Shown in pieces: positions 16,162 to 54,680 of a stretch of 64,000 nt of DNA (position 1 is the stretch's first letter; every line of letters starts with the position of its first letter). The notes under the pieces were generated by a model. It saw only the letters and a program-made list of their open reading frames with translations. It made no database searches and was not told the origin of the DNA. The stretch spans positions 397 through 64,396 of the forward strand of contig JAFZEI010000015.1 in NCBI GenBank assembly GCA_017560765.1, written 5' to 3'. The DNA comes from Clostridia bacterium. GTDB taxonomy: Bacteria > Bacillota > Clostridia > UBA1212 > UBA1255. A program made the position numbers and the translations under genes.

Positions 16162-17397
16162 TTAATCTCTTTTGAAAAGGTCTCTCGTATACACTTTCTC
16201 TTTAACATCATCAAGGCAAGCGTCATATCTGTTTGCTATTATACAATCACACTGCTTTTTAAAAGTCTCTAGGTCATTTACAATTTTACTGCCGTAAAAT
16301 ACTGAATTATCCTCCAAAGTCGGCTCATAAATAATAACAGTCGTTCCTTCTGCTTTTATTCTCTTCATTACTCCCTGTATAGAACTCTGTCGGAAATTGT
16401 CGGAATTGCTCTTCATTGTCAATCTATAAACGCCTACAGTGAGATTTTGCGCGTTATTTCCGTCAAAGCCTGCCTTTTTTAGCACACGCTCCGCAATAAA
16501 ATCTTTTCTCGTCCTGTTGCTTTCTACAATCGCACCTATCAGATTTTCAGGAATATCTGCATAATTCGCAAGCAACTGCTTTGTATCTTTTGGCAAGCAG
16601 TACCCTCCGTAACCGAATGAAGGATTATTGTAGTGATTGCCTATTCTTGGGTCTAAACATACACCTTCTATTATTGCTTGTGTGTCAAGGCCTTTGATTT
16701 CCGCATACGTATCCAGCTCATTAAAATACGATACTCTCAAAGCCAAATATGTGTTTGCAAAAAGCTTCACTGCCTCTGCCTCTGTAGTTCCCATGAAAAG
16801 AGTATCAACATTTTCTTTGATTGCGCCTTCTTGTAAAAGTTCTGCAAAAGTATGAGCTGCTGTCACAAGCTTCTCGTTTTGCATATCCGTTCCCACTATT
16901 ATTCTTGACGGATACAAGTTGTCATACAAAGCTTTTGATTCTCTTAAAAACTCAGGGCTGAAAAGTATGTTTTCTGTGTTATATTTTTTTCTTACTTTTT
17001 CTGTGAAGCCTACAGGTATTGTGGATTTTATTACCATTACAGCATTTGGATTGCATTTTTTTACAAGTTCTATGACTGCTTCGACTGCCGTTGTGTCGAA
17101 ATAATTTTTTGTGCTGTCATAATTGGTTGGTGCTGCAATAACTATAAAATCTGCATCGGAATATGCTTTGTCCCCATCTACCGTTGCTGTTAGATTTAAT
17201 TCTTTGGTAGATAAATATTCTTCAATTTCTTTGTCCTGTATGGGTGATTTTTTTTCATTAATAAGAGCTACCTTTTCAGGGACAATGTCTACAGCAGTAA
17301 CTTGATTATGCTGTGCCAAAAGGACAGCTAATGAAAGTCCCACATATCCTGTTCCGGCAACTGCAATTTTAAAATTATTCATATTATCCTCCCACAA
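16162..17397 (-). CDS. ugd: UDP-glucose 6-dehydrogenase (nucleotide-sugar dehydrogenase family)
   Basis: N-terminal Rossmann motif [10 protein letters not shown], catalytic Cys region GGYCLPKD and a C-terminal UDP-binding domain. Confidence 0.85.
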
Positions 17398-17400
17398 AAT

Positions 17401-19669: not shown

Positions 19670-19694
19670 TATAATACCTTCTTCTGTTTATAAA

Positions 19695-20918
19695 TCACAA
19701 ATAGTAAACACTATCTGAATTTATTCCGATATTTTGCGTGTCTAAAACAATTTTTCCCTTTAATTTGTCTGCATTTTCTTTTATCTCATTATGTTTTACC
19801 ATAATAACAACAAAATCTACAGATGATAAGAATTCATCCAAATCAAAAATCTGGTTTTCTGTTATGTTATGCTTTATAAATGGATCATACGCAACAAGAG
19901 GTTGTGCCAAATGTTTTTTCTGACACTCCAAAAGCTGCAGAGCCGGGGATTCTCTGTAGTCGTCCACATTCTCTTTATAAGTCAATCCGTATAAGCCTAC
20001 TTTTGATATGTCTGTCATGCCCTTTTCTTTCATTATGTCATGAATTCTTTCTAAAACAAAAGCCGGCATAGAATCATTTACTTTCATCGATTCCCATATC
20101 ACTTTTGTAAGGCTCGGGTAATCTCCTACCAAAAACCACGGGTCTACGGAAATGCAATGGCCTCCCACTCCGGGGCCCGGATTAAGAATATTTACCCTTG
20201 GGTGCATATTGCAAATTTTAATGATTTCATAAACATTCATATTGTCATTTCTGCAAATTTTTGCCAACTCATTTGCAAACGCTATATTTACTGCTCTGAA
20301 TGTATTCTCTACAACTTTTGTCATTTCTGCCGTTTTTATATCAGTAATAATTATTTCTCCTTGGCAAAAAGAAGCATAATACTCTTTTATTTTCTCACCG
20401 ATTTCTCTGTCATCTGCACCTATTGTTCTGTTGTTATGCAAAAGCTCATATACCATATTGCCGGGAATAATTCTTTCGGGGGCATGTACAAGATTTATAT
20501 CTTTTCCAATAATTAAACCTGCCTTTTCTATTACCGGCCTTACATATTTATCAATTGTTCCGGGAGAAACAGTAGACTCTATTACAATAGTAGCTCCTTT
20601 AGGGCAAACTTTAATTATCTCTTTTACTGCAGAATTCACATAGCATACATCTATTTTTTTTGAAAAACTGTCATACGGAGTTGGCACAGACACAATATAT
20701 GTATCTGTAACACAATATTCCGTAGTAAATTTGATACCGCTCTTCAAAGCTTTTTCAAACAGTTCATCCAAGCCGTCTTCTTTAAAAGTCGTTTTCCCCG
20801 CATTGAGAGTAGCCACAAGTTCCTTATTATAATCTGTTCCTACCACTTCTACCCCATGAGATGCCATCATAAGAGCAGTCGGAAGACCTATATACCCCAA
20901 GCCAATAACATTTACCAT
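19695..20918 (-). CDS. wecC: UDP-N-acetyl-D-mannosamine dehydrogenase-like nucleotide-sugar dehydrogenase
   Basis: VIGLGYIGLP Rossmann motif and a catalytic Cys region (GGHCISVDP). Paired with wecB as in ManNAcA pathways. Confidence 0.8.
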   Translation of the reverse strand: MVNVIGLGYIGLPTALMMASHGVEVVGTDYNKELVATLNAGKTTFKEDGLDELFEKALKSGIKFTTEYCVTDTYIVSVPTPYDSFSKKIDVCYVNSAVKEIIKVCPKGATIVIESTVSPGTIDKYVRPVIEKAGLIIGKDINLVHAPERIIPGNMVYELLHNNRTIGADDREIGEKIKEYYASFCQGEIIITDIKTAEMTKVVENTFRAVNIAFANELAKICRNDNMNVYEIIKICNMHPRVNILNPGPGVGGHCISVDPWFLVGDYPSLTKVIWESMKVNDSMPAFVLERIHDIMKEKGMTDISKVGLYGLTYKENVDDYRESPALQLLECQKKHLAQPLVAYDPFIKHNITENQIFDLDEFLSSVDFVVIMVKHNEIKENADKLKGKIVLDTQNIGINSDSVYYL

Positions 20919-20925
20919 TCTTAAA

Positions 20926-22485
20926 TTACCTCGTTTTCCTTAATTGTGCCTTTTCTTCTTTATTTAAACCAAATGCCCACAATGTGCCCAGATAAACTAC
21001 AGCAAAAGCCGCAACACCCAAAAGCATTTTCGCAAGTAGATTTTCGAAAAGAAGTGTGGCTGCAAAGCAAGCTATTCCGCTTAAAATCAAGCAAATCCAA
21101 ATTTTACCGAATATGTTTTTATACATTTTTATCATATTAATTTTATAAATCTTGTAATAATAAATGTTCATTATTATTACGCTGCCAACAAAATAGCTGA
21201 AAGCAGTTCCTACAGCTGCCGCATAATAATTCCAAAAATACGTACCAACCAAGGAAATTATAATATTCAGTACCGTAGTCAAAAGTAAAATCATGGTTCT
21301 GAACACCAATCTATTCTGGGCCCTTAATATAGATAAGCATACATTGACACACAATTCCAACAAGGAAGGTAACATGAGTATTAGAACAATGATATACACA
21401 TCCTCATAGCCATTCCCTAACCATAAATTGACAAAAGTTTTACCTAAAACAATAAAACCTGTCAATGCACCTCCTAATAAAGCAAATTGTATTCTGCCTG
21501 CCTTAAGAATCAATTTTTGAGTCGCAGAAAGATTTTCATCATCGTTTTTTAAGGTTTCAGTTACTGTAGGAAGCATAACACTTGAAATAGATGTAGAAAG
21601 CTGCTCAAACATAGAAAATATCAATAATCCCATAGAATAAACTGTAACTGCTCCTGCGTTGACGACAGCTCCTATTATTACGTTATCAAGATTTCCGTTG
21701 GCTTGAGATGCAATAGTAGTGATAAAAATCAGCATAGAATACTTAAATGATTCTTTAAACACGCTGTGTTCCCATCTGCTGAATTTTATTTTAACATTTA
21801 ACACACGATTTATATAAACAATTTCAACGCAAAGCATTCCTATTGTCAAAAACAAGTCTAACAATACAATAACCAAGGCATCTTTTATAAAATGCAAAGC
21901 AACATATATTGTCAATATTCTTGTAAGCAAGCGGATTATCTTTAATCCGTTGCCAAACATGAATTTATTAAAACCTGTTATCACGCCATTGAAAACATTT
22001 TCAAAAATATGAGCAATAATGCCGGCACACAAAAAGACATACAGCTGTTTAGCTTTTACTAGCTCTGCTGCTGTAAGACCTTTCCCATATATATTGTCAA
22101 TAAAAAAATAAATAATTCCGGTAGCAATTATAACGACTACGCTAATAATACCTGCTTGAAATAAGCTCATAGATATAAAATTAGGTATTTTTTCTTCTTC
22201 TTTGTCAGCTCTGTATCTTGATATATATCTCAATAATGTACCGCCAAGACCAATATCTAAAACCAACAGTGCTGCTGTAAAAGAAGACATAGTCTTGTAA
22301 ACACCATAAGCACTGTCGCCTAGCTTGTCAACAATATATGGAGTAACCAACAAACCGGAAACAGTATTAAGTATTATTAATATATAAGAAAGAATCGCAC
22401 CATATTTTACTTGCGATAATGAAATTTTTCTCAAAGTTTTTCTCCCGTATTTTTTTCTTTTGCTCGCCTTATTATGCCAACACAC
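20926..22485 (-). CDS. wzx: Oligosaccharide flippase (Wzx, MOP superfamily)
   Basis: Roughly 12-14 predicted TM helices. Polysaccharide biosynthesis protein family pattern. The true start is probably downstream of the listed one, which overlaps the next gene. Confidence 0.7.
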   Translation of the reverse strand: MCWHNKASKRKKYGRKTLRKISLSQVKYGAILSYILIILNTVSGLLVTPYIVDKLGDSAYGVYKTMSSFTAALLVLDIGLGGTLLRYISRYRADKEEEKIPNFISMSLFQAGIISVVVIIATGIIYFFIDNIYGKGLTAAELVKAKQLYVFLCAGIIAHIFENVFNGVITGFNKFMFGNGLKIIRLLTRILTIYVALHFIKDALVIVLLDLFLTIGMLCVEIVYINRVLNVKIKFSRWEHSVFKESFKYSMLIFITTIASQANGNLDNVIIGAVVNAGAVTVYSMGLLIFSMFEQLSTSISSVMLPTVTETLKNDDENLSATQKLILKAGRIQFALLGGALTGFIVLGKTFVNLWLGNGYEDVYIIVLILMLPSLLELCVNVCLSILRAQNRLVFRTMILLLTTVLNIIISLVGTYFWNYYAAAVGTAFSYFVGSVIIMNIYYYKIYKINMIKMYKNIFGKIWICLILSGIACFAATLLFENLLAKMLLGVAAFAVVYLGTLWAFGLNKEEKAQLRKTR

Positions 22486-23657
22486 AATCCAATAAGCAGG
22501 AAGAAGTTTGGTTCTAATAAATACGAACTTGACAAAAATAATTTAAAGAAGCTATTTGTGCAAAGCAAAGCTATAATGAAAGTTTTTTCTTTACTGCTCT
22601 CACATTTTGACAATGCACTAATATAAAGCGCTATCAATATTCCGAATATTAAAGAACCGCCAAGCACACCAAAGGACACCCATAATTCCAAAATAATGTT
22701 ATGCGCATATGCCGTTGTAAACTCTCTGTCTGCTGCAACACCCAGTCCCCAAGGATTTTCCTTTATTACAGACAGTAAGGTTTTATTAATATTATCACGT
22801 CCATTTGGGTCTGCTATTTCTCCTTCTTTAAAACTGTCCAAAATTCTGGTACTCATACCCATACTTGAAACTATCTCCCTCAAAAAGTCAATAATCTCAT
22901 CCATAAACAAAAAGACAACAAGAAGAAATAAAATAATTGCTAAATAAGCGACTATTTTGTTTTTTGTTTGCTTTATAAAGACAAAATATGCAAAAGCAAA
23001 AACTATTATTGCAACAACAGGGCCTCTTGTGCCATATGATATCAATAGCACAAATCCTATAATCATGGCAATCAGATCAATTTTTTTATATTTTTCAAAG
23101 AAATATCCGGCTGTCAGTGCAACATGAGGAAGGAGTTTATATGCCATACCCATATTGTCATCACCAATTTGCAATGTATCTGTTCCGAAAATTATTAAAC
23201 TTGCCAAATCTGCAAAAATTGCATAAACAGAAAGGACGTGTAAATAGTCAATCACCTTTTCACTTCTGTATGCCGCACCTACAAGAAATAAGGTGAGAAT
23301 GAATAAAATAAAATCTCGTCTTTCCTCTGATAATACTGTAGCAACCTCTGTATAAGCTGCGTATTGTATTCCTAATTGATATCCGGCTGCAACAGCAAAG
23401 TATAGAAATATATCAGATAGCCGCAATCGCTCAAAAAAGTAAGAGACAGAAAGCAAAATTGCCGTAATAAAAAACAAATAAACTACAATTTCTGTAATGT
23501 AGTTAAAAAACGGCAACCTGTACATGACAAGTTTTAAGTCAGAAATTAATGTATTGTTTGCCCAAACCAAGCAAAACAAAAATAAAAAAAACATTTCTGA
23601 ATTAAAAGGTTTCTCTAATATATTTATATTTTTTGGATATTCTCTATTGATTGCCAT
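22431..23657 (-). CDS. wzy: O-antigen ligase/polymerase-like membrane protein (Wzy-like)
   Basis: Polytopic membrane protein with a large periplasmic-type loop, in the context of wzx and GT genes. Confidence 0.55.
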   Translation of the reverse strand: MAINREYPKNINILEKPFNSEMFFLFLFCLVWANNTLISDLKLVMYRLPFFNYITEIVVYLFFITAILLSVSYFFERLRLSDIFLYFAVAAGYQLGIQYAAYTEVATVLSEERRDFILFILTLFLVGAAYRSEKVIDYLHVLSVYAIFADLASLIIFGTDTLQIGDDNMGMAYKLLPHVALTAGYFFEKYKKIDLIAMIIGFVLLISYGTRGPVVAIIVFAFAYFVFIKQTKNKIVAYLAIILFLLVVFLFMDEIIDFLREIVSSMGMSTRILDSFKEGEIADPNGRDNINKTLLSVIKENPWGLGVAADREFTTAYAHNIILELWVSFGVLGGSLIFGILIALYISALSKCESSKEKTFIIALLCTNSFFKLFLSSSYLLEPNFFLLIGLCVGIIRRAKEKNTGEKL

Positions 23658-23674
23658 AAATTCCCCTTCTTGAT

Positions 23675-24703
23675 TTACTTACCAATTAATATAGGCAACA
23701 CAAAAGTCCATAAGCCTGTTCTGCATAAAAAAAGGAAAAATCTGTATTTATAAGATAATTTTCTGTACATTTCCTTTTTATTCAAAACATCCCACGGCTC
23801 TTTATTTAAATATTCTTTTACAATATGTCTTTTTTCTTTTGATGTCTTAGGACACTTTTCAGAAAGCAATTCGCAAGATACAACAGTATAAAATTCCATT
23901 GCAAGATTTTTAGCATAACACAGTGTATTTTCTTTTATAAAAGCTGCATTTTCTTTTTTTAAGAGCTCTGCATATCTGCAAAGTATTTCTTCCCTATTTC
24001 CATAATATTTTCTCATGGAGGAACTTTCATATATCACATAGCAGTACCATATATCCAGAACGACACAAATATTACTGCACTTGTTTGTAAATTGCATATT
24101 CCATAAAACGTCTTCCCCTAAGGGTTGTCCCACAGGGAAAGGATTATTCTTCGCAACATCACTCTTTATGAGTCTTGCACATGGACCTCTGCCTATATAG
24201 CCATATTTTTTTACGTTTTTATATTCGGTCCGATTTGTCATCAAAAAGTAACTGCGCAAATCATCCATATTTTCTTTTGTATAAATATGATATTGTTTGT
24301 TTTCTTGTAACGGAATACTAACACTTTCCCCCGGTTTTGTTTTTGCAACTGCCGCAATCACCATGTCAGAATTTGTCTCTTTTATGATTTGAAGTCCCTC
24401 TGAAATTGCTTGAGGAAGCAGTACATCATCTGAATCCAAATACATAATATAGTCTCCGGTTGCAAGTTCTGTACCGTAATTTCTCGCAGCGCTTACTCCT
24501 TTGTTTTCACAATGAAAAACACGAATTCTATCATCGAGACTTTTTTGCAAATCACAAAAAGCAGCAGTTTCTTCATTTGAGCCATCGTCAATTATTATAA
24601 TTTCAACATCTTTGAAAGTCTGATTAAAAAGACTTTCCATGCAACGGTTCATATATTCACAATTAACATTGTATACAGGTATTATTACGCTGACAACAGC
24701 CAT
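23675..24703 (-). CDS. Glycosyltransferase family 2
   Basis: N-terminal VSVIIPVYN plus DDGS and DSDD motifs typical of GT-A/GT2. Confidence 0.8.
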   Translation of the reverse strand: MAVVSVIIPVYNVNCEYMNRCMESLFNQTFKDVEIIIIDDGSNEETAAFCDLQKSLDDRIRVFHCENKGVSAARNYGTELATGDYIMYLDSDDVLLPQAISEGLQIIKETNSDMVIAAVAKTKPGESVSIPLQENKQYHIYTKENMDDLRSYFLMTNRTEYKNVKKYGYIGRGPCARLIKSDVAKNNPFPVGQPLGEDVLWNMQFTNKCSNICVVLDIWYCYVIYESSSMRKYYGNREEILCRYAELLKKENAAFIKENTLCYAKNLAMEFYTVVSCELLSEKCPKTSKEKRHIVKEYLNKEPWDVLNKKEMYRKLSYKYRFFLFLCRTGLWTFVLPILIGK

Positions 24704-24715
24704 ATTTTCCTCTTT

Positions 24716-25612
24716 TTAATACTTTATTCTAACGTAAATTTTAGCCAGCAAGCGTCTGGTACAAGCCAACATGTATCTCAAATATTGAAATACGCACACT
24801 TTTTTATCAAATACATACGAAACGATATTTACGCTTACTCCGCAATCCATAAGCTTTTTGTTCTTATTGTTATACTTAGTTCGTGAAAAAACCGTCATCC
24901 CGCTTTCTGAATATTTTTCAATTTCACCGGGAAACTTTTCTGTATACATAAACGGATATGAAATAAATAAAACACTGTTCTCTTTTAAAAACGATATTAC
25001 AGCATCAACATCATTTTCTCCCATATTGTATTCATATCTGGCACAATATATCCCTTTATATCCTAATTTTGAAACTATCGCTACAGTTTCTGTAGTATAT
25101 GCTTCTATCAGAAATCTTTCTTTTAATTCTGTTTTTTCTCCTATACACAACGAAAGTACATCAAGGAAATTCAAAATCTGTTCCTCTGTAAACATTCCGA
25201 ATAAATCGAGCATAAAAACAGTATCATTATACTCTGATAGCATATCAATAATATTTTGTAAGGATATAGGAGTAAGTCCCTTTGTGGATAAAGAAAAAAG
25301 AGTCTGTTTCATAAACCAGTCAAAGTCATATACATTGGGCTTTTCAAAAACCTCCATACGTCTCATTGACTTTTCATCAACAGTATGAGCAACGGCAACA
25401 TATTTGTTGTCAGTTGTTTTTCCGATGTCAAATTCAAAAACCTTAACACCTTTTTTATACCAACGCAAAAATGCCTCTTTTGTATTGGTTTGTCTTACAC
25501 CGGCAAAAGCACCGAGACCGTGCATACAATAATTAAATTTACCTTTTAATTCATGAACTGTCATCGTATTAAAGTTTTGCTGCCTCTGCAATTGCCAAAT
25601 CGTTTTCATCAT
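24716..25612 (-). CDS. Hypothetical protein, divergent glycerophosphodiester-phosphodiesterase-like (GDPD-like) fold candidate
   Basis: Loose match to the GDPD N-terminal pattern (HG..xxNTKEAF...G..FEFDI..T.DNKYVAVAH). The probable true start is the internal Met near 25564. Confidence 0.35.
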   Translation of the reverse strand: MMKTIWQLQRQQNFNTMTVHELKGKFNYCMHGLGAFAGVRQTNTKEAFLRWYKKGVKVFEFDIGKTTDNKYVAVAHTVDEKSMRRMEVFEKPNVYDFDWFMKQTLFSLSTKGLTPISLQNIIDMLSEYNDTVFMLDLFGMFTEEQILNFLDVLSLCIGEKTELKERFLIEAYTTETVAIVSKLGYKGIYCARYEYNMGENDVDAVISFLKENSVLFISYPFMYTEKFPGEIEKYSESGMTVFSRTKYNNKNKKLMDCGVSVNIVSYVFDKKVCVFQYLRYMLACTRRLLAKIYVRIKY

Positions 25613-26309
25613 CTATTTCATACCAACGGTCTGCATCAATTTTAACTATCCTTATATCATTGTTCCCGTAATATATCATTGCACCAAGAACAAGCTCATA
25701 GTAACTGTTTATATTTCCTATTTTTACATATAAATCAATCATAGGAAAATACTGGTTGCAAATAAAATTCTTACTAAACTTGTACACGTTTACTGTTTTA
25801 AGTGCCTCGTCATACGGGAATCCCTCATATTGGTCTCTTTTTATAACAAGGGAACTTGCCTTTATTCCATCGCAAGAAAGTATAACAGAGCCATTCATCG
25901 TTACAGGGTTATACTCACTTACCAATATATTACATTCCGCTTCTCCCGACAATATTTTTTCTATCAGATCATAACCATAATACAAATCACATTCAAGCAT
26001 AATGCAATCATCATGTATATAATCCCTCGCCAAAAAAAGAGAGTAGACATTGTTAGTTTTATCATAATCTGAATTTTCTACATATGTAATAGACATGCCC
26101 TTCCAGTTATTACCTATGTGTTTTATTATATATTCTGCCATATGGCCAACAACTATCACTACATTGTCAATTTTGCGCGTTGCAGATAAAAGATTTAAAG
26201 TATTTTCAAGAAGAGGAGTTCCCTTAACCGGAACCATACTTTTAGGCATATGATCTGTAAGCGGCCTAAGACGTTTACCAAAACCGGCAGCCAAAATAAT
26301 CGCTTGCAT
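25569..26309 (-). CDS. Sugar-/phospho-alcohol nucleotidyltransferase, LicC-like (CTP:phosphocholine cytidylyltransferase family)
   Basis: N-terminal MQAIILAAGFGKRLRPLT..PK.MVPV motif of the NTP-transferase family. 246 aa. Adjacent to licD. Confidence 0.65.
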   Translation of the reverse strand: MQAIILAAGFGKRLRPLTDHMPKSMVPVKGTPLLENTLNLLSATRKIDNVVIVVGHMAEYIIKHIGNNWKGMSITYVENSDYDKTNNVYSLFLARDYIHDDCIMLECDLYYGYDLIEKILSGEAECNILVSEYNPVTMNGSVILSCDGIKASSLVIKRDQYEGFPYDEALKTVNVYKFSKNFICNQYFPMIDLYVKIGNINSYYELVLGAMIYYGNNDIRIVKIDADRWYEIDDENDLAIAEAAKL

Positions 26310-26327
26310 TTTTACTTACTCCTTTCT

Positions 26328-27212
26328 TTAATTAAAAAATTTTATGCACTTTTTAGGAGAATCCAACATATTAACCGGATGCTCAGGCTTTCTTCTTTCT
26401 TCAGACGGCAATAAAGAATAATCCCCATACATTTCTTTAAGAAATGTATCTGAATTAATTAATGCCATAAGTTTTTCTCCTCTAAATAAAACCTCGCCGT
26501 ATCCCTCGTCATAACTTTTTTTATTAAAACGTCTTCCGGTCTCGTACATTCTTGACGTATAACGTGTATATATTCCCGATGGTTTATGTTTCTTTATAGC
26601 AACCGCCTTGTCATTCAGCTCAAATATATCGCGAGGTCCGACAATTATTTTAGCAAAAAGACCGAGAATACTACTTACAATATCCCTTATCTTCTTATAC
26701 GTCTTGTTATATTTGTCGTGCCTTACATTTCTCACTTTAGTATTGTGAAATGCAGTTCTTAAAAATCCTGTTTTAAATTTTTTCCACTTAAAAACCAATT
26801 CGTTTGCAGGTTTTTCTTCATTAATAAATAAATCAATGTATATTTTTTTCTCCAACAACTCTTTCGTTGTTACCCTGTCAAGAAAATGAATTTTTAATAC
26901 TTTAATTTCTGAATCTTCTGCAAGTACTTGTCTAAGTTTAGTATATTCCGTCCTTGTCATCATTACGTCAGCATCATCATCCCAAGGAACGAAATCACCA
27001 TGTCGCATAGCTCCCAAAAGCGTTCCGTCAGCAAGAGAATACTTTAAATCATGCTCTTTGCAAAAACGGTCAAAAGATAATAGCAAGCGCATCATATCTT
27101 CATGTGCTTCTTTTAAGTTATACTTCTCCTCATAGCTGCCTACTTTACTGTAAGGATATGGGATTATATAGTTAATAATCGCTTTTGTCTTTGTGTCGGC
27201 GCCGCTCATCAA
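26328..27212 (-). CDS. licD: LicD family phosphotransferase (LicD/fukutin-like)
   Basis: YSLADGTLLGAMRHGDFVPWDDDADVMM matches the LicD signature with its DxD motif. Confidence 0.8.
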   Translation of the reverse strand: MMSGADTKTKAIINYIIPYPYSKVGSYEEKYNLKEAHEDMMRLLLSFDRFCKEHDLKYSLADGTLLGAMRHGDFVPWDDDADVMMTRTEYTKLRQVLAEDSEIKVLKIHFLDRVTTKELLEKKIYIDLFINEEKPANELVFKWKKFKTGFLRTAFHNTKVRNVRHDKYNKTYKKIRDIVSSILGLFAKIIVGPRDIFELNDKAVAIKKHKPSGIYTRYTSRMYETGRRFNKKSYDEGYGEVLFRGEKLMALINSDTFLKEMYGDYSLLPSEERRKPEHPVNMLDSPKKCIKFFN

Positions 27213-27732
27213 ATGCCTTCCATCTTTCCTCTGCAGTTTCCAAATATATTAGAGAACGTCTTTTTTCTGCAAAATTTTCAAAAGTATCAATTTGCTTTGC
27301 GGGTATTCCTGCCCAGACAGCACCCGCCGGAATGTCTTTATTAATCAAACTATTAGCTCCGATTACAGTATCAGACCCAATTCTTACATTTCCCAATACA
27401 ATAGTTCCCGAACCAATAAAAACATTATCCTGTATATCTATACAACCCAGTTGCTCTTTAAATTCAGAATTATTTTTCTCTCCATGGTATTTGAAATTTA
27501 AAACACCATGAATCGCGTCATGTACAACAAACTTTACACCGGAAGCTACTTCAACATTATTTCCAAATGAAATAAGCTCGGAATGTAAAGGAACAAGCAT
27601 TGCAGGTAATCTTACATTTTTACCTACGTGATGAAAAATCTTCTTTTTCCTTGCGTAATTTCCTCTTTTAAGTTGATCAAAAAAAAGAAAAAATCTTATA
27701 GATCTGAACATTCTTTTTATATCCATTGCCAA
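27172..27732 (-). CDS. Hexapeptide-repeat (LbH) sugar acetyltransferase
   Basis: Left-handed beta-helix repeats (IGSGTIVLGNVRIGSDTVIGANSLI) in a Maa/WcaF/PglD-like size class. Confidence 0.75.
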   Translation of the reverse strand: MAMDIKRMFRSIRFFLFFDQLKRGNYARKKKIFHHVGKNVRLPAMLVPLHSELISFGNNVEVASGVKFVVHDAIHGVLNFKYHGEKNNSEFKEQLGCIDIQDNVFIGSGTIVLGNVRIGSDTVIGANSLINKDIPAGAVWAGIPAKQIDTFENFAEKRRSLIYLETAEERWKAFDERRRHKDKSDY

Positions 27733-27739
27733 ATATCTC

Positions 27740-28519
27740 CTAAATATACTCTCCGGCTGTTATTCTGAATGTACTGCCTGTCATCATGGCAGAGGAATCT
27801 GACATAAGGTAAATCAATGCCTCCACATAGTCATGTCTTTCCAACATTCTGCCCATCGGAATTGTGTTTGCCGCACGTTTTCTTAATTGTGCCTCAGTTT
27901 CTCCCTGCTGTTTTCTAAGGGCAACTTCACCCTCTGTTGGTGTCCATCCCAAAGTAAGATAGTTGCAACGTATCATTTCCGAAGCATAATTATGAGCAAT
28001 ATGTTCCATAAGAGTAATTAAAACGCCCTTGGAACAAGCGTATGCAGCTCTGTCCTTTTCGCCACCCCACGCATGAGCAGAACCTGTAAAAACTATGGAA
28101 CCTCCACCATTCATTCGCATATATTTTATTGCCTGTTGACAACAAAAAAAGCAAGCCCTGAAATTTACGTTCATTACCTGATTAAAAGTTTCTTCATCAC
28201 AAGTATCTAAAGGAGAAATCGGCGTTACACCTGCATAATTGAAAAAACCGTCTATCTTCCCAAACTTATTTGCAGCTTCGTCAAATAACTTCTTACAATC
28301 TTCTACTTTTTCCAGATCTGTATGGACAAAAATTGCTTCACTTCCATAAGTCTTGATAATTTTAATTGACTTACGAGCAGCGTCTTCATCTCTGCCACCT
28401 ATAACCACTTTAGCTCCGGCTTTTGCAAACTCTTCGGAAATTGTCTTTCCTACTCCTTTTGTACCACCGGACACTACTATAACTTTTTCTTTTAACGGTT
28501 TATTCATATCAAAAATCAA
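27740..28519 (-). CDS. SDR family oxidoreductase
   Basis: TGGTKGVG glycine motif and a YxxxK (YACSK) active site. 259 aa. Confidence 0.8.
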   Translation of the reverse strand: MIFDMNKPLKEKVIVVSGGTKGVGKTISEEFAKAGAKVVIGGRDEDAARKSIKIIKTYGSEAIFVHTDLEKVEDCKKLFDEAANKFGKIDGFFNYAGVTPISPLDTCDEETFNQVMNVNFRACFFCCQQAIKYMRMNGGGSIVFTGSAHAWGGEKDRAAYACSKGVLITLMEHIAHNYASEMIRCNYLTLGWTPTEGEVALRKQQGETEAQLRKRAANTIPMGRMLERHDYVEALIYLMSDSSAMMTGSTFRITAGEYI

Positions 28520-28523
28520 CGCC

Positions 28524-29828
28524 TTATAATTCTAATGCTTTTTTTACATCAAAGCCTTTAAGCAACATGTCATTTCCGTTTGTATCAAAGACCTTAACAC
28601 AATCCATATATTCTCTAAGTTTTTCCCCCAACTCCTGTTTCGAATCACATACAATGTATAATCTTGTCATAACTTGCTTTTCATTACCTATCCATTCTTT
28701 AGGAATATTATCTCCTTCATATAAACGCTGTGCATTTGCAATAATATTTTTATCGTTTTTCCATTTATCCAAACCCTCAATTTTGCCAATGCGTCCCTCT
28801 TTGAGCAAAAACCAAAGTGTAGCAGCCCATTTTCCGCGCAAATAAGGATCATCCGAGGATAAAAGATCCATTTTTCCCTCAGACCCCGTCAAAGCAAATC
28901 TAATAAGCATTTCTCTTTGATCAAAACCTTGAATTTCTTTAATTAGCAGATGCGGTGCCTCTCCCTGAAGTCTAAAGCCTGTATCGTACACATAAAACTC
29001 ACCATTTTCATAAAAAGCAGAAAGCATGAGCACTCCATTACGTATTCCGATGTCCTTGAACATCATTACTGCATTCTCGTGCATTCTCTCAAAATATTCC
29101 TTCATATGCTTTGAGGGGTATGTGCCTCCAAGACACACACGGCTCAACCCGGGCTGTTCATCAGTAGTATATCTGTCATATATACAAGATGCGCTGCATT
29201 GTCCGTCCTTAAACGTATAATACATTCCCATGTCTTCACATTGCATGTATTTTTCTACTATAAAGCGTTTTTTCTTTGAGGCTTCCAAAGCTTTTTCAAC
29301 GGCAGGTTTTAAGTCTTCTTTACTGTAACAAACTGTCATTCCCACACCACCACCGTTATCTACAGGCTTTACCATTACAGGAAATACAATTTTATCAATA
29401 TCTCTGTCATTTAAATCTGCATCAAGATAAAACTCCGGTATTCCGTGAATGCCATACCTTTCACAAGTAGCTTTAAAAACATCTTTAAAGGCAAAAACAT
29501 CAACAATTTGCTGCGTGGCATAGCAAGGAAAACCTAAAGCATTACAAACTTTACAATAGGAAGGAACAAGAATATCAGCAACGCCTACCAGCACACCGTC
29601 AACTTTTTCTTCCATTGCCAAAGCAATAACACCGGGGACATCCATTCCGTCAACATCAAAACTTTTCCAGGAATACTTTTTTGCATCATCAGTATGGCGA
29701 CCGCTTGTAACAATGGTCTTAATTCCCATTTCGTTTGCCAACTTAACAAGTGCTGTTGTTTCAGGATTTCCTCCTAAAATCAATAACTTTTTACCTTCAA
29801 ATTCACTACTCATATAAATTCTCCTCAT
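28524..29828 (-). CDS. ATP-grasp domain protein (carboxylate-amine ligase-like)
   Basis: PreATP-grasp Rossmann N-terminus followed by an ATP-grasp fold. 434 aa. No close named homologue can be assigned by eye. Confidence 0.6.
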   Translation of the reverse strand: MRRIYMSSEFEGKKLLILGGNPETTALVKLANEMGIKTIVTSGRHTDDAKKYSWKSFDVDGMDVPGVIALAMEEKVDGVLVGVADILVPSYCKVCNALGFPCYATQQIVDVFAFKDVFKATCERYGIHGIPEFYLDADLNDRDIDKIVFPVMVKPVDNGGGVGMTVCYSKEDLKPAVEKALEASKKKRFIVEKYMQCEDMGMYYTFKDGQCSASCIYDRYTTDEQPGLSRVCLGGTYPSKHMKEYFERMHENAVMMFKDIGIRNGVLMLSAFYENGEFYVYDTGFRLQGEAPHLLIKEIQGFDQREMLIRFALTGSEGKMDLLSSDDPYLRGKWAATLWFLLKEGRIGKIEGLDKWKNDKNIIANAQRLYEGDNIPKEWIGNEKQVMTRLYIVCDSKQELGEKLREYMDCVKVFDTNGNDMLLKGFDVKKALEL

Positions 29829-29842
29829 TTATACAGTTTCTG

Positions 29843-30613
29843 TTATATAGTTATTCTTTCTCCCACAGTCATAAACATAAAATTATTATTTGGATATTGT
29901 TCTTTCATAATGTGGTAAAATTTCCCGGGATTTCCTCCATGGCACGGAAACATTCCGTAATGACTGGGAATAGTAATTTTGGGCTGTAACGCATTACTTA
30001 AATCTGCACAATCCTGTTCATTTAAATTGCCAAATGCTCCGTTTATCGGTGCAATCAACATATCTATTTCTCCAAAAGCCATATATTCTTCTGCTTTTTC
30101 AAGATGCAAACAAGTATCTCCGGCCATATATATTATTTTACCATCTACGGAAATTACCACTCCAAATGCATCCGGTGCGGCATCAGAATGATCGCAGCTT
30201 ACAAAATGCAAATCAAAACCATCCAAAGAGACGCTTTGTCCTGCTTTTACATAATGCACATTGCTTTCCTTCATTTGCAAACGTAAAACTTCTTCTCTGC
30301 ATCGTGTAGATGCAAAAAGCTTAGTATTGGGATTCGACATAAGCAGCGGTATAGAATCTATATCAAAATGGTCTACATGTGCATGAGTTGTTATCAAATA
30401 ATCAAATTCTATATCAAAAGCACCAAATAATTTAGGGAGCATTCTTTTAAAACCAATATTACCTTCAATTCGCTCTACACATTCCGACAAATACAAATCT
30501 ATGCCTAAAAGCTTCCCGTATTTATTTTTTATTATATACCCCGCCTGTCCCACATAAAAAAGATGTGTTTCTCCAAGCCGTGCAGACATAACATTTGTTA
30601 CGAAATCATTCAT
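29843..30613 (-). CDS. MBL-fold metallo-hydrolase
   Basis: THAHVDHFD (HxHxDH) motif plus downstream His/Asp ligands. Confidence 0.75.
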   Translation of the reverse strand: MNDFVTNVMSARLGETHLFYVGQAGYIIKNKYGKLLGIDLYLSECVERIEGNIGFKRMLPKLFGAFDIEFDYLITTHAHVDHFDIDSIPLLMSNPNTKLFASTRCREEVLRLQMKESNVHYVKAGQSVSLDGFDLHFVSCDHSDAAPDAFGVVISVDGKIIYMAGDTCLHLEKAEEYMAFGEIDMLIAPINGAFGNLNEQDCADLSNALQPKITIPSHYGMFPCHGGNPGKFYHIMKEQYPNNNFMFMTVGERITI

Positions 30614-30629
30614 AAACTATAATACCTAC

Positions 30630-31253
30630 CTATACAGTATTTTGTGACTCTACGTATTCAGCAAAATCCTCCATTGTAACAGAAGTTTCTGAGGATATTC
30701 CTTCCCGCTTAAAAACTGCAGCTACAGTTTTGAAAAGAATTTTTATATCCAATAAAAGGGAAACATTATTCACATAATATAAATCTAATTGAAATCGTTC
30801 CTCCCAAGACAGTAAGTTCCTGCCATTTGCCTGTGCATACCCTGTTAATCCCGGCCTTACATCATGTCTGTGTTTTTGTTCTTCTGAATAGTATGGCAAG
30901 TATTTTACCAATAAAGGCCTGGGGCCGACAATTGACATATCGCCTTTTAATATATTTATTAATTCCGGTAGCTCATCGAGAGAAGATGCTCTCAAAAACT
31001 TTCCATACGGGACCAATCTTTCTTCATCCGGTAAAAGATTATCGTTCGTATCTTTCTCGCAAGTCATTGTCCTGAATTTAATAAGCTTAAAAACCTTCTC
31101 TTTTTTACCCGGTCGTGGTTGTACAAAAAAAGGATTGCCTTTCATAACAATAGCTCCTGCGACAATCATGATTATTATAATCGGCGAAAAAACAATTAAG
31201 GCAGATAAAGAAAAAACAAAATCAAGTATACGTTTAATAAACTTTATGTACAT
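30630..31253 (-). CDS. pglC: Undecaprenyl-phosphate sugar phosphotransferase (small PglC/WbaP C-terminal type initiating enzyme)
   Basis: Single N-terminal TM helix plus the bacterial sugar-transferase motifs KFRTM and DELPQL-like LDELPEL..GDMSIVGPRP. Confidence 0.85.
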   Translation of the reverse strand: MYIKFIKRILDFVFSLSALIVFSPIIIIMIVAGAIVMKGNPFFVQPRPGKKEKVFKLIKFRTMTCEKDTNDNLLPDEERLVPYGKFLRASSLDELPELINILKGDMSIVGPRPLLVKYLPYYSEEQKHRHDVRPGLTGYAQANGRNLLSWEERFQLDLYYVNNVSLLLDIKILFKTVAAVFKREGISSETSVTMEDFAEYVESQNTV

Positions 31254-31254
31254 A

Positions 31255-32442
31255 TTAAAAACAACTCTTTATTATCTCAATTACAACATCTTGCTCTTGC
31301 TCTGTCATTTTTATATCACTGGGCAAGCACAATCCCCTATTAAATATATCTTCACATACACAAAAATTATCAGCTTGTACAACACCACAATTTTTAAATA
31401 CAGGTTGCATATGCATCGGCTTCCATATTGGTCTCGACTCAACATTGTACGAAGCCAATTTTTCGCGAATTTCCTCAGGACAAGACTTTCCTTTTTCGCT
31501 AATATATGTAAATTCCTTTTCTTGGCGAATTTGCTTGCACATTGCTTCTTTATCAATAATTATGCAACTAAGCCAATAATTTGGTTCCATTCTTTTCTCA
31601 TCATAAGGATTCATTTTTAAAGGAAGATTCTTTAAACCTTCTTTGTATCTTTCATATATAGCCTTTTTGGCTTTTACATGCTCATCAAGATGTAATAATT
31701 GTCCTCTGCCTATCCCGGCAAGGACATTGCTTAATCGATAATTGTACCCCACAATCTCATGCTGATACCATGGAGCATCTTCTTTTGCTTGTGTAGACAT
31801 CTTTCTTGCCAAGTCTATGGCGTTTTTATCATTGCTTAATAACATTCCGCCGCTACTGCAAGTAATAATTTTGTTTCCGTTAAAGCTTATTACACCATAA
31901 TCTCCATAGTTGCCCGTTTGTACTCCTTCAAAAGTTGCACCTAAAGACTCCGCCGCATCTTCAATCAAAACAGCATTGTGTCTTTTGCAGATAGCTTTTA
32001 TTTCGTCTAATTTTGCAGGCACGCCATAAAGGTTCGTCACAATAACAGCCTTTGCATCACCGTAAATCTCAAAAGCTCTTTCAAGTGCTTTCGGATCCAT
32101 ATTCCATGTTTCTGTTTCGCTATCAATAAAAACAGGCTCTGCTGCTTCATAAACAACGGGATTTACCGTTGCAATAAAAGTCATATCCATACAAAAAACT
32201 TTATCTCCCGGTTTAACACCGGCTAATTTAACTGCTAAATGCAAAGATGTTGTTCCTGAAGACAATGCCAAAGAGTAATGACATCCTACTTTATCACAAA
32301 TTGCTTGCTCTAATTGATTTATATTTTCACCCAATGTGCTGACCCAATTTGTATCAAAAGCTTCATCAACAAAAAGTCGTTCCTCAGAATGCATCGTAGG
32401 TGTTGCTAGCCATATTTTTTTATCAAAGGGTTTAATTACCAT
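31255..32442 (-). CDS. pglE: DegT/DnrJ/EryC1/StrS-family PLP-dependent sugar aminotransferase (PglE/WecE-like)
   Basis: Family pattern (SSGTTSLHLA..., PLP-lysine region). 395 aa. Confidence 0.85.
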   Translation of the reverse strand: MVIKPFDKKIWLATPTMHSEERLFVDEAFDTNWVSTLGENINQLEQAICDKVGCHYSLALSSGTTSLHLAVKLAGVKPGDKVFCMDMTFIATVNPVVYEAAEPVFIDSETETWNMDPKALERAFEIYGDAKAVIVTNLYGVPAKLDEIKAICKRHNAVLIEDAAESLGATFEGVQTGNYGDYGVISFNGNKIITCSSGGMLLSNDKNAIDLARKMSTQAKEDAPWYQHEIVGYNYRLSNVLAGIGRGQLLHLDEHVKAKKAIYERYKEGLKNLPLKMNPYDEKRMEPNYWLSCIIIDKEAMCKQIRQEKEFTYISEKGKSCPEEIREKLASYNVESRPIWKPMHMQPVFKNCGVVQADNFCVCEDIFNRGLCLPSDIKMTEQEQDVVIEIIKSCF

Positions 32443-32446
32443 TTTT

Positions 32447-34480
32447 TCACCTTACTATCTTAGTTTGCTCCTGACAAATCGAATCATTCTCAATAAAATT
32501 CGAGTTACCCGCAGGCTTATACGTAGTTACAATTTTCATAACCATTTCTCTTACATCATCATCTCTGTTTTCAAAGCACGCCTTCATTAAAAACTGTAGC
32601 TGATGCAAAAACTTATCCGTATCAAAATTTATAGGCTTTCCTATATGTATAAGTTTATTGGGAGTACTTGTTATACCCTCTTCAGCCATAAGCTTCTCCT
32701 CAAAAAGCTTCTCTCCCGGCCTTAAACCAATATATTCAATTTTAATATTAACATCAGGAATATAACCTGACAATTTAATTAAATTTCTCGCTAATGTATC
32801 AATTTTCATCGGAGAACCCATATCCAAAACAAAGATTTCTCCGCCCTTCGCATACGTTTCTGCCTGCAGAACGAGAGAGACAGCCTCCGGAATAGTCATA
32901 AAATAACGTATTATATCAGGATGTGTAACTTTTACAGGTCCACCGTTTGCAATTTGTTTTTTAAACAAAGGAATTACAGACCCGTTGCTGCCCAAAACAT
33001 TACCGAAGCGCACAGCAACAAATTCCGTATGAATCTCTCCGGGATGTTTACACGGCATTTTAAATTCCCCATCCTCATCCTCAACATGAGCCTGTATAAC
33101 AGGAAGCTCGTCCGCTCTGCCTTCCTTAATAAGCTTATCAAAAGACTGAATTATCATCTCGCACAAACGCTTGCTGGCGCCCATAATATTTGTTGGGTTA
33201 ACCGCCTTATCTGTCGAAATCAAAACAAAGCGTTTGCAACCATTCATAATAGCAGCATATGCTGTCTTGTATGTTCCGATGGCATTATTTTTTATAGCTT
33301 CGCAAGGGCTACTCTCCATAAGAGGAACATGCTTGTGTGCCGCAGCATGGAAGACAATTTCAGGCTTGTACTTATTAAAAACCTGGTTTAACTTACGGCT
33401 GTCTCTGACTGAGCCTATAAGCACCACAAGATTTAATCCGTAACACGTTTCCTTAAGCTCTTGCTCTATATCATAAGCATTGTTCTCATAAACATCAAAA
33501 ATTATCAACTGCTTAGGTGCATGTTTTGCAATCTGTCTGCACAACTCACTGCCAATTGAACCGCCGCCGCCTGTAACAAGAATTACCTTTCCGCTCAACT
33601 GACGGAAAATGTCACTCATTTCTACCTTTATCGGTTCTCTTCCCAAAAGATCTTCCACCGCAATATCCTTCATGGCAGCAACAGAAACATCACCGTTAAC
33701 AAGCTGGTATAAGCCGGGCAGATTTTTTACTTCGCATTTTGTGTTTTGGCAAATATTAAGTATTTCACTTTTGACTTCGGCAGAACAACTGGGAATAGCA
33801 AAATATATCTTCTCTATATTGTACTTTTCTACATTTACTAAAATATCGTCACGTCCGCCTACTATCGGTACGCCATCAAGATATCTTCCCCATTTACTGC
33901 TATCGTCATCAATTATACAGCAAACAACATCCTTGATTGTTGTTGCTCTTTTAACATCCTGTAAAATCATTTGTCCTGCAGAACCGGCACCAATCAGCAT
34001 AACTTTTGAAAAACCTGCCCCTGAGGTATTTTTTATTGCACTGTTTCTTTGTAACAGAATAAAACGATATCCAAAACGCACTGTAATCAAGAAAACAAAC
34101 TGTATTATTGAGCCAAATAAATGATATGAAAAAATCATTTGTTTAAAAATAACTGTAATTCCTATCCAGTGAGCAACAGAAGTAATAATTGATGCCAATA
34201 AAATTCTGGAAAACTCATTAAAACTTGCATATCTCCACAAGCTGCGATAAAGTCTGAGCAAAAAGAAAATAACAATGCAAAAGACAGAATATATCGGTGC
34301 AAATTTTGCAAACGGTTCTAAATATCCACTGCTTTCTACCAAAGAAAACTTACAGTCAAATCTAAACCACAATCCTAAAAAATATGATAAATTAACAGCA
34401 ATCACATCATAAAAAACAAGTAATATCGCTGCATAATTAATAGATTTTTTTTGTTCAATCGATTTGTTGTTATTCATCTT
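32447..34480 (-). CDS. pglF: Membrane-anchored UDP-GlcNAc 4,6-dehydratase (PglF/CapD/WbpM family)
   Basis: Four N-terminal TM helices and two Rossmann domains (GAGSAG...; VTGGGGSIGSEL). The start is set at the internal ATG at 34480, which follows GGAGG. The longer ORF-track start at 34648 looks like a spurious extension. Confidence 0.85.
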   Translation of the reverse strand, partial: KMNNNKSIEQKKSINYAAILLVFYDVIAVNLSYFLGLWFRFDCKFSLVESSGYLEPFAKFAPIYSVFCIVIFFLLRLYRSLWRYASFNEFSRILLASIITSVAHWIGITVIFKQMIFSYHLFGSIIQFVFLITVRFGYRFILLQRNSAIKNTSGAGFSKVMLIGAGSAGQMILQDVKRATTIKDVVCCIIDDDSSKWGRYLDGVPIVGGRDDILVNVEKYNIEKIYFAIPSCSAEVKSEILNICQNTKCEVKNLPGLYQLVNGDVSVAAMKDIAVEDLLGREPIKVEMSDIFRQLSGKVILVTGGGGSIGSELCRQIAKHAPKQLIIFDVYENNAYDIEQELKETCYGLNLVVLIGSVRDSRKLNQVFNKYKPEIVFHAAAHKHVPLMESSPCEAIKNNAIGTYKTAYAAIMNGCKRFVLISTDKAVNPTNIMGASKRLCEMIIQSFDKLIKEGRADELPVIQAHVEDEDGEFKMPCKHPGEIHTEFVAVRFGNVLGSNGSVIPLFKKQIANGGPVKVTHPDIIRYFMTIPEAVSLVLQAETYAKGGEIFVLDMGSPMKIDTLARNLIKLSGYIPDVNIKIEYIGLRPGEKLFEEKLMAEEGITSTPNKLIHIGKPINFDTDKFLHQLQFLMKACFENRDDDVREMVMKIVTTYKPAGNSNFIENDSICQEQTKIVR

Positions 34481-34674
34481 TTGCCTCCTTTTCTTTAATA
34501 CTTTTTTATTTCTTTTTTGTATGCTTCGCCAACCTAAACATATATTAATTTTGTTTAGATGCTTTTGTAAAAAATATATCTTTTTGTTGTCTGAAACGAG
34601 CGTAAAGCTACGATTTAAGACAAAACAAAAGTCATACAAAAAAAGCACAAACAGAACAAACCATTCGCTGTTTA

Positions 34675-54678: not shown

Positions 54679-54680
54679 TA

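Follow-up and report, generated by a model that had tools for sequence, protein, structure and literature searches.

Several described systems for building and decorating surface glycans resemble parts of the locus analysed here. In Bacillus cereus ATCC 14579, according to the account of Hwang et al. (2014, JBC) given in PMC11626204, the ATP-grasp enzyme Pyl joins 2-oxoglutarate to a UDP-4-amino sugar to yield UDP-Yelosamine, and its gene lies directly upstream of that of a small phosphoglycosyl transferase (PGT; Q814Z7). Pyl corresponds to BC5272 and the aminotransferase Pat to BC5273 (PMC4595770), and the polymer carries a (2-R-hydroxyglutar-5-ylamido)Fuc2NAc4N residue (PMC6222762); since this is a 2-hydroxyacyl amide, a reductase is required in B. 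cereus. A second reference is the Lic pathway, which in Haemophilus influenzae is fed with choline by the glycerophosphodiester phosphodiesterase (GDPD) GlpQ (PMC10434233). A third is phosphonate tailoring by Ppm, PntC and LicD-type enzymes, in which Asp105 and Asp192 of the cytidylyltransferase LicC are matched by Glu104 and Glu196 in PntC, an enzyme specific for 2-aminoethylphosphonate (AEP), the larger Glu being argued to help exclude phosphocholine (Rice et al. 2019, PMC6697681). We compared these systems with a locus in a stretch of 64,000 nucleotides from a Clostridia bacterium (contig JAFZEI010000015.1 of assembly GCA_017560765.1; the window), in which an earlier inspection (the sequence-only reading) had singled out seven consecutive genes, at positions 24716-30613, as suggestive of one module building one non-standard glycan substituent.

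Seven open reading frames (ORFs) of the minus strand indeed lie back to back and span 24716-30613 exactly. Pfam and NCBIfam profiles, used to assign the ORFs of the window to families, supported six of the seven as originally named: a metallo-beta-lactamase (MBL)-fold hydrolase, an ATP-grasp enzyme, a short-chain dehydrogenase/reductase (SDR), a hexapeptide acyltransferase of the left-handed beta-helix (LbH) type, LicD, and an NTP_transferase-type nucleotidyltransferase (NTase). The call of a divergent GDPD-like protein for the seventh, referred to here as p7, was also right, as judged from its modelled fold and a Foldseek search. By the same profiles, the flanking genes were as described: a PglF-like dehydratase, a DegT aminotransferase and a small PGT upstream, and a family 2 glycosyltransferase (GT2), Wzy, Wzx, a wecC-like UDP-ManNAc dehydrogenase, a 2-epimerase, a 393-aa ORF and Ugd downstream. 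The seven genes are part of one operon-like run in a Wzx/Wzy surface-glycan locus (approximately 16162-34648). What did not hold was the idea of a single module. The MBL, ATP-grasp and SDR genes constitute an independent and widely shared trio, which occurs without LicD, the NTase or p7 and belongs functionally with the dehydratase, aminotransferase and PGT upstream, outside the seven-gene interval; the LbH gene is an optional insertion or deletion (indel).

The first member of the trio, an MBL-fold metallo-hydrolase (29843..30613; PF13483, E 8e-13, and PF12706), has a canonical HxHxDH motif. The nearest solved proteins are the UPF0173 hydrolases 7E3V and 3X2Z, and by sequence it is assigned to the UPF0173/UlaG-like branch. 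It is followed by the predicted ATP-grasp carboxylate-amine ligase (ORF 28524-29828; PF02786/PF07478), whose likely true start at 29813 gives a gene of 28524..29813 and a product of 429 aa, matching the length of its homologues, and then by a classical SDR oxidoreductase (27740..28519; PF13561, E 2.5e-46). Homologues of the ATP-grasp enzyme are numerous: 3095 proteins at E<=1e-5 among 8000 candidates scored, and 456 clusters of relatives at E<=1e-30. A survey limited to one genome per species, with loci picked by ATP-grasp similarity alone, gave 310 species-level genomes with a relative. Locus statistics were drawn from the best 80 of these 310 (72-81% identical), annotated by means of the window proteins and of gene families built de novo. 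By record title, these 80 carriers include Lachnospiraceae, Ruminococcus, Eubacterium, Salinivirgaceae, Rikenellaceae, Muribaculaceae, Sphaerochaetaceae and Synergistaceae. Several of the 80 loci are on contigs of more than 100 kb; short contigs of metagenome-assembled genomes (MAGs) may be mis-binned, L064, labelled 'Rhodospirillaceae', being an example.

The SDR gene adjoins the ATP-grasp gene in 73/76 loci, and the MBL gene is directly upstream of it in 67/77, with three further apparent fusions. MBL-ATP-grasp fusions are found in proteins P0012, P0039, P0212 and P0237, and an ATP-grasp-SDR fusion in P0163; the wider ATP-grasp family includes fusions to SDR, MBL, GNAT and FemAB, and an LAL_C2 domain in distant members. 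Loci of the Eubacterium coprostanoligenes type (ATP-grasp 79% identical) keep the order PglF-DegT-PGT-MBL-ATP-grasp-SDR, in which the trio always comes after PglF-DegT-PGT, and continue with unrelated glycosyltransferases, without LicD, NTase or p7. It is these adjacency counts, the fusions and the loci without the last three genes that define the trio as a unit of its own. Of the 47 loci that had 6 kb or more of flanking sequence, 42 contained DegT and 31 the PGT. Ugd-type and ManNAc-dehydrogenase-type matches were present in two each. The search for the seven-gene block in other genomes, which the sequence-only reading had called for, showed the block to split into the trio, the LbH gene and a LicD set; some backing for the view of one module comes from 42/69 loci, where a LicD gene is found downstream of the SDR at a distance of no more than 2 kb. 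Given this last count, the trio and the LicD modules are statistically linked, yet separable.

Conservation within the cassette is uneven. Median identity to the window proteins is 76% for the ATP-grasp enzyme and the SDR and 52-58% for the MBL, DegT and PGT proteins, and the first two are 72-83% identical over several phyla (Bacillota, Bacteroidota, Spirochaetota, Synergistota). The GC content of the trio follows that of each host, from 0.36 to 0.54 (L018-L097). Because it does so while ATP-grasp and SDR identity stays high, the data suggest strong constraint on the trio rather than a very recent sweep, and an old horizontal spread. A sister locus, L001, is 96% identical and has the same gene order, minus the LbH gene.

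The cassette that contains the trio closely parallels the UDP-Yelosamine system. Three adjacent genes of the minus strand, at 30630-34648, encode a PglF/CapD-like membrane-anchored UDP-GlcNAc 4,6-dehydratase (32447..34648; PF02719, E 4.6e-114, with CoA_binding_3; NCBIfam PseB/FnlA-type matches below their cutoffs), a DegT-family sugar C4-aminotransferase (31255..32442; PF01041, E 1.4e-88; best NCBIfam match a LegC-family aminotransferase, 341 bits vs. a cutoff of 420) and a small, monotopic, PglC-like PGT of 207 aa with hydrophobic segments at its N-terminus (30630..31253; PF02397, E 4.5e-61). The GTG at 34648 probably over-extends the dehydratase ORF, since the product in the sister locus is called at 676 aa. 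The ATP-grasp gene lies two genes downstream of the PGT. As in the UDP-Yelosamine system, a 4,6-dehydratase, a DegT-type C4 aminotransferase, an ATP-grasp enzyme and a small monotopic PGT are thus encoded side by side, and no PglD-type N-acetyltransferase was found in the cassette, where the LbH protein, the product of an optional gene, was tested. The dehydratase, aminotransferase and small PGT are also homologous to those of the diNAcBac module of the Campylobacter and Neisseria Pgl systems, and their order is alike; the difference is that PglD is missing from the cassette and MBL-ATP-grasp-SDR stands in its place.

Because homologues of PglF, PglE and PglC are present while a PglD-type enzyme is absent, we propose that the ATP-grasp enzyme substitutes for PglD. 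In the scheme that we infer, substrates and order of steps included, UDP-GlcNAc would be dehydrated and transaminated to UDP-4-amino-4,6-dideoxy-HexNAc, with DegT providing the amine and, if glutamate is the donor, releasing 2-oxoglutarate. The ATP-grasp enzyme would then join a carboxylic acid to the 4-amine, in place of the usual PglD-type N-acetylation, and the small PGT would load the sugar onto the lipid carrier and so start the repeat unit. By analogy with Pyl, the ATP-grasp enzyme thus probably forms an amide on an amino sugar. The window cassette differs from that of B. cereus in that it adds an MBL and an SDR, fused or adjacent to the ligase, in that the PGT is placed before the ligase, and in its wide distribution, with protein identities of 72-83%, over Bacillota, Bacteroidota, Spirochaetota and Synergistota of the gut and rumen. 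We know of no MBL or SDR in the description of the B. cereus UDP-Yelosamine system.

The gene that follows the trio in the window, encoding an LbH (hexapeptide) acyltransferase (27172..27732, minus strand; PF00132, with NCBIfam matches of the WbbJ, GAT and EpsC types), is an optional element. When the DNA is aligned with that of L001, whose flanks are 88-92% identical, the gene shows up as a precise 549-bp indel (27192-27740) that falls between the stop of the SDR gene and the start of LicD; in the window its 3' end overlaps the start of LicD. An LbH gene is found at the same position in 10/71 species loci. It probably encodes a sugar O-acetyltransferase of the repeat unit. We rejected the protein as a PglD equivalent: its match to the NeuD/PglB/VioB model is partial, confined to its C-terminal 50 residues and to positions 152-202 of the model, at 52 bits vs. 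a cutoff of 160.8, and the gene is missing from L001.

The last three of the seven genes would form a phosphodiester-building set. The LicD-family phosphotransferase (ORF 26328-27212, with an ATG at 27209, minus strand; PF04991, E 1.8e-26, 94 bits vs. a cutoff of 22.6) carries a WDDDAD motif, and its subfamily (at least 40% identity) is represented in 17 loci, 15 of which contain p7. The NTase (25569..26309, minus strand; NTP_transferase) is a LicC/PntC-type cytidylyltransferase. Its family profile matches LicC (1JYK) over the full length, at E 1.3e-24, with PntC (6PD1) next, and its model (pLDDT 95.5) gives Foldseek TM scores of 0.83 to PntC (6PD2) and 0.81 to LicC. In HMMER alignments, the invariant pocket residues E106 and E205 align with E104 and E196 of PntC and with D105 and D192 of LicC. 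The NTase would activate a small phospho-alcohol, and LicD would move the activated group onto the lipid-linked repeat as a phosphodiester. Because the pocket is Glu/Glu as in PntC, a donor smaller than phosphocholine is favoured and the donor of the NTase is probably not phosphocholine, which lends support to a suspicion already voiced from the sequence. A phosphoethanolamine-like compound or glycerol phosphate appears likelier, and these lead as candidates because no PEP (phosphoenolpyruvate) mutase was found among the window ORFs scanned.

As in the Lic-1 systems of H. influenzae and Streptococcus pneumoniae, a LicC-fold cytidylyltransferase is found beside a LicD-family transferase in a surface-glycan locus, and the GDPD-like p7 recalls the GlpQ that serves the H. 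influenzae pathway. The set could accordingly be imagined to be an ordinary phosphocholine decoration, with the NTase acting as LicC, LicD moving phosphocholine, p7 releasing choline from glycerophosphocholine as H. influenzae GlpQ does, and licA and licB elsewhere in the genome. LicC is indeed the best full-length profile match, the Tyr-Tyr pair YY203-204 of the NTase aligns with the Tyr-Trp of LicC, GlpQ is needed for choline supply in H. influenzae, and NCBI labels the NTase homologues 'phosphocholine cytidylyltransferase family protein', although this is a name only. The pocket, however, is Glu/Glu as in the AEP-specific enzyme and not Asp/Asp as in LicC. Moreover, neither a choline kinase/APH protein (LicA) nor an EamA-type permease (LicB) was found among the window ORFs scanned (all but about ten large ones, at 36300-39854 and 45771-62277), in agreement with the sequence-only reading, or in the p7 loci with Pfam tables. 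In addition, p7 is probably cytoplasmic, unlike GlpQ, with no hydrophobic segment detected, and it is tightly coupled to LicD. Finally, several other p7 loci (L012, L015, L029 and L037) have no LicC-type NTase, and carry a small, non-homologous TagD/RfaE-II-like cytidylyltransferase elsewhere in the locus. We therefore consider a phosphocholine decoration unlikely. Non-homologous cytidylyltransferases serve the same set of functions in p7 loci; the small ones were rejected as true TagD, scoring 65-69 bits vs. a cutoff of 165 and tying with RfaE domain II.

Phosphonate tailoring is resembled at the level of the NTase: its model is nearest in structure to PntC, and the two Glu with which PntC touches the amine of AEP are present in it as well. 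Sister loci, moreover, carry Ppm-cytidylyltransferase fusions next to LicD. A difference is that PEP mutase, phosphonopyruvate decarboxylase and AEP transaminase were not found in the window ORFs scanned or in the p7 loci inspected, and because these phosphonate-synthesis genes are absent, a phosphonate donor is unlikely in the window locus. Other trio loci pair the post-SDR LicD with PEP-mutase (PepM)-cytidylyltransferase fusions, a ribitol-5-P cytidylyltransferase-like gene or an RmlA-like gene, so that a phosphodiester or phosphonate substituent next to the acylated sugar is a recurring theme with interchangeable donors. Donor-type genes lie beside the post-SDR LicD in sister loci L080 (17607-18908), L083 (2315-3031), L095 (18478-19365) and L076 (12125-13207); the genes beside LicD in sister loci include the PEP-mutase-cytidylyltransferase fusion (e.g. 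L080), the ribitol-5-P cytidylyltransferase-like gene, which scores above its NCBIfam cutoff, the RmlA-like gene and an FkbM methyltransferase. CDP-alditol synthesis of the TarI/TarJ, Bcs1 or AbpA/AbpB type differs from the window, where the SDR is tied to the ATP-grasp gene and not to the cytidylyltransferase. For this reason (73/76 loci, and the fusion in P0163), and because the SDR occurs in loci without any NTase, we rejected the idea that the SDR works together with the NTase by reducing a CDP-ketose. Homologues of the NTase, ~58% identical, are also found in another, conserved five-gene set, with an Asp/Glu-racemase family protein, an unknown 403-aa protein, a Polysacc_synt flippase and an HAD phosphatase (L098, 7001-12035; L100, 7001-11947); this set is without LicD or p7, and the NTase family is therefore not tied to p7.

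The p7 gene (ORF 24716-25612, minus strand) has no Pfam or NCBIfam match above threshold. Translation probably begins with the ATG at 25564, one codon past the NTase stop, giving 24716..25564 and a protein of 282 aa. Only 34 homologues were found among 5.8 billion proteins, none with a Pfam domain; p7 scores 14.3 bits against PF03009, below the cutoff of 23.6, and 20/30 members give sub-threshold matches only. Its AlphaFold model, made with the homologue alignment, is a confident TIM barrel (pLDDT 93.4) that retrieves dozens of glycerophosphodiester phosphodiesterases by Foldseek at E ~1e-11. Residues H15, E44, D46, H60, R150 and E154 do not vary among 30 family members or in three distant copies (31% identical) from other loci. 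We take H15, H60, E44, D46 and E154 to be the counterparts, by residue numbering, of H17, H59, E44, D46 and E119 of the Thermoanaerobacter tengcongensis GDPD. Read by this numbering, and not by a residue-level alignment, the invariant residues would include the pair of catalytic His and the Glu-Asp-Glu set that binds the metal in canonical GDPDs. We predict that p7 is a divergent, GlpQ-like, metal-dependent phosphodiesterase.

It shares a TIM-barrel fold and a putative active site with GDPDs such as Bacillus subtilis GlpQ and the T. tengcongensis enzyme. It differs from them in falling below the Pfam gathering score, in its HR(G) motif, which reads H15-G16 with Gly in place of Arg (the invariant Arg being R150), and in a basic amphipathic C-terminal helix (residues 254-281). 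Its context differs too, being biosynthetic and LicD-coupled, vs. scavenging or teichoic-acid-degrading, with only ~34 members known. No hydrophobic segment was detected in p7 by a hydrophobicity check, made without a signal-peptide predictor, and p7 is for this reason probably cytoplasmic. Its gene always comes directly after LicD or LicD-NTase, in three arrangements: LicD-p7 (the one of L012, L015, L029 and L037), LicD-NTase-p7 of the window lineage, and a divergent LicD-NTase-p7, this order recurring with divergent copies in L046, L076 and L083. The protein represents a small family without a Pfam model and a new enzyme family in a biosynthetic setting. Its contribution could be one of two. 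It might supply a phospho-alcohol or alcohol from a glycerophosphodiester or phospholipid, replacing the missing kinase, for which the GlpQ of H. influenzae is a precedent; alternatively, it might trim the transferred group, uncovering a phosphate.

We thus explain the seven genes by an acylation trio, an optional LbH acyltransferase and a phosphodiester set, and to this explanation as a whole we give an even chance. Several observations weigh against it. The presence of LicD after the SDR in 42/69 loci is above what a view of purely independent modules predicts. No DegT or PGT accompanies the unit GT2-MBL-ATP-grasp-SDR-LicD in loci L032 and L036, or in the 10 kb upstream of ATP-grasp in L038, and a 4-amino sugar made at the locus itself can therefore not be the amine acceptor in every case. 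Distant members of the ATP-grasp family have an L-amino-acid-ligase C-terminal domain or FemAB/GNAT modules, and another keto acid or an amino acid is therefore equally possible as substrate. The likeness of the ATP-grasp enzyme to Pyl is one of gene kind and context, not of sequence alignment, and the role of the MBL is only proposed, its reaction being speculative. Lastly, GlpQ-type chemistry releases sn-glycerol-3-phosphate and an alcohol; canonical GDPD chemistry would reverse a glycerol-phosphate transfer by LicD, and the fold alone therefore leaves the role of p7 unexplained.

Some of these points would be accounted for if all seven genes built one substituent after all, LicD adding phosphoethanolamine or AEP, the ATP-grasp enzyme acylating its amine with a keto acid, the SDR reducing the product, and the MBL and p7 trimming it. 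The frequency of LicD close after the SDR, the fact that several LicD subfamilies occupy this position, and the loci with trio and LicD that lack DegT (L032, L036 and the available L038 flanks) all speak for such a pathway. So do the PEP-mutase-cytidylyltransferase fusions right after LicD in sister loci, which imply an AEP amine, and the Glu/Glu pocket, which is of the type seen with a primary-amine substrate. It is contradicted by the 27/69 loci in which the trio has no LicD nearby, by the presence of DegT in 42/47, by the E. coprostanoligenes-type loci, where only glycosyltransferases follow the trio, and by the sole described ATP-grasp precedent known to us, which acts on a sugar 4-amine. 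On balance, we think it improbable that the genes act on one substituent. The same low probability applies to a more detailed form of the three-unit explanation, in which the cassette makes a hydroxyacyl-amido amino sugar, the neighbourhood of this sugar, perhaps the side-chain hydroxyl, receives the LicD phosphodiester, and p7 then acts on the cytoplasmic face to leave a phosphomonoester or cyclic phosphate, or mines phospholipid for a phospho-alcohol instead of a kinase.

Within the three-unit explanation, the nature of the acyl group can be narrowed further. The likeliest acid would be a 2-oxo acid, for example 2-oxoglutarate as with B. cereus Pyl; 2-oxoglutarate leads because it is the by-product of the aminotransferase. 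The SDR would then reduce the keto group to give a hydroxyacyl amide, e.g. 2-hydroxyglutaryl. The SDR fits this step because its gene is adjacent to that of the ligase, equally conserved and sometimes fused to it, and the 2-hydroxyacyl amide of B. cereus needs a reduction such as the adjacent SDR of the window could perform. The MBL might be an accessory enzyme that hydrolyses the acid or the acyl intermediate or opens a ring in it; opening of a cyclised 2-oxoglutaramyl lactam, lactone hydrolysis and thioester hydrolysis are speculative candidates.

A thioesterase role for the MBL would also suit a different product, N-(3-hydroxybutyryl), if the MBL freed acetoacetate or 3-hydroxybutyrate from its CoA ester, the ATP-grasp enzyme ligated the acid to the amine and a FabG-like SDR reduced the 3-keto group. 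In its favour, MBL enzymes of the glyoxalase II type act as thioesterases, 3-hydroxybutyryl is the most frequent of the non-acetyl N-acyl groups known from 4-amino-6-deoxy sugars, and many trio carriers are what we take to be butyrate-pathway Clostridia. The SDR also has high scores with the models for FabG and 3-hydroxybutyrate dehydrogenase (E 1e-38 to 1e-46), but these matches are generic, the MBL is of the UPF0173/UlaG-like branch and not a glyoxalase II, the route would be wasteful compared with direct acyl-CoA transfer, and the cassette is also found in Bacteroidota, Spirochaetota and Synergistota MAGs; a 3-hydroxybutyryl product is thus quite unlikely.

The remaining option, that the ATP-grasp enzyme forms an amide between an amine and a uronic acid in the repeat unit (GlcA or ManNAcA, made by Ugd or the WecC-like dehydrogenase), in the manner of the Campylobacter amidoligase Cj1438, which amidates a uronic acid, draws on the presence of Ugd (16162-17397) and the UDP-ManNAc dehydrogenase (19695-20918) in the same operon, but was dropped as very unlikely on the co-occurrence counts (2/47 each vs. 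42/47 for DegT) and because the trio adjoins DegT and the PGT, not the dehydrogenases. Of the amide proposed in the sequence-only reading, the version with an amino sugar thus stands as probable and the version with a uronic acid falls.

The same reading had raised the possibility of an undescribed decoration. Literature searches for this gene combination returned nothing. Every enzyme is from a familiar superfamily and the central step has a described analogue, namely the synthesis of UDP-Yelosamine by B. cereus Pat and Pyl; the amide part is thus not entirely new, and p7 is from a family that was previously unclassified. If the more detailed form of the three-unit explanation is correct, a hydroxyacyl-amido group with its acyl carboxylate, combined with a LicD phosphodiester, would make a charged and possibly zwitterionic surface polymer. 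More generally, a carboxylate-bearing acyl-amido sugar, often accompanied by an amino-alcohol phosphate or phosphonate, would produce capsules that are charged or zwitterionic, a kind known to influence the immune responses of the host and recognition by phages. Relatives of the ATP-grasp enzyme in ~310 species-level genomes, mainly from gut and rumen samples, point to a strongly selected, horizontally shared surface-glycan trait that seems chemically uncharacterised. Among cultured carriers, E. coprostanoligenes ATCC 51222 has the trio alone, whereas R. flavefaciens ATCC 19208 and Lachnospiraceae bacterium AC2029 have it together with LicD; Sporofaciens musculi WCA-9-b2 is a further cultured carrier.

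Other genes recur around the trio. A GT2 of ~407 aa is encoded just 5' of the MBL gene in 45/74 loci; it was rejected as an ArnC-like polyprenyl-phosphate transferase, as it has no C-terminal transmembrane segments. A PIG-L-family de-N-acetylase gene is found just 5' of the trio, usually before the GT2, in L031 (7301-7954), L023, L047, L049, L054, L055, L071 and L085, which suggests that the first sugar may bear another free amine in these eight loci. In the rumen Lachnospiraceae L032 (4834-18996), L036 (1099-19281) and L038 (4539-13279), the unit GT2-MBL-ATP-grasp-SDR-LicD lies just after ppdK, outside any Wzx/Wzy locus. A dlt-like set, consisting of a DltA-like AMP-binding enzyme, an MBOAT protein and a GDSL protein, comes after the unit in L032 and L036, and the setting of this unit may be of the teichoic-acid type.

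Downstream of p7 in the window lies the GT2 gene (23675..24703, minus strand; PF00535, E 6.9e-36). A GT2 comes next after p7 in most p7 loci (types a and b), and the order p7-GT2 is repeated in L009-L016, L029, L037 and L093. The 393-aa ORF (17401-18582, minus strand) has no Pfam, NCBIfam or PDB sequence match and is kept in sister locus L001; because the locus has only one other glycosyltransferase besides the PGT, this ORF could be an unrecognised one. A scan for promoters and terminators gave counts not above those of shuffled controls; the best promoter-like site, with 11/12 matches, lies at 34703-34675, just 5' of the dehydratase ORF.

The window as a whole is low in GC (~35-40%) and contains Clostridia-type housekeeping genes, among them those for MecA, PFOR, transketolase and GH94 enzymes. 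Two ORFs outside the glycan locus, of 254 aa (42344-43108, minus strand) and 291 aa (43252-44127, plus strand), have no Pfam match. At 6923-14543, on the minus strand, an 1826-aa protein that combines GT2-like, glucoamylase-like and GH94 supersandwich parts comes before a GH94 protein of 735 aa, a pair that resembles a split cyclic beta-1,2-glucan synthase/phosphorylase system.

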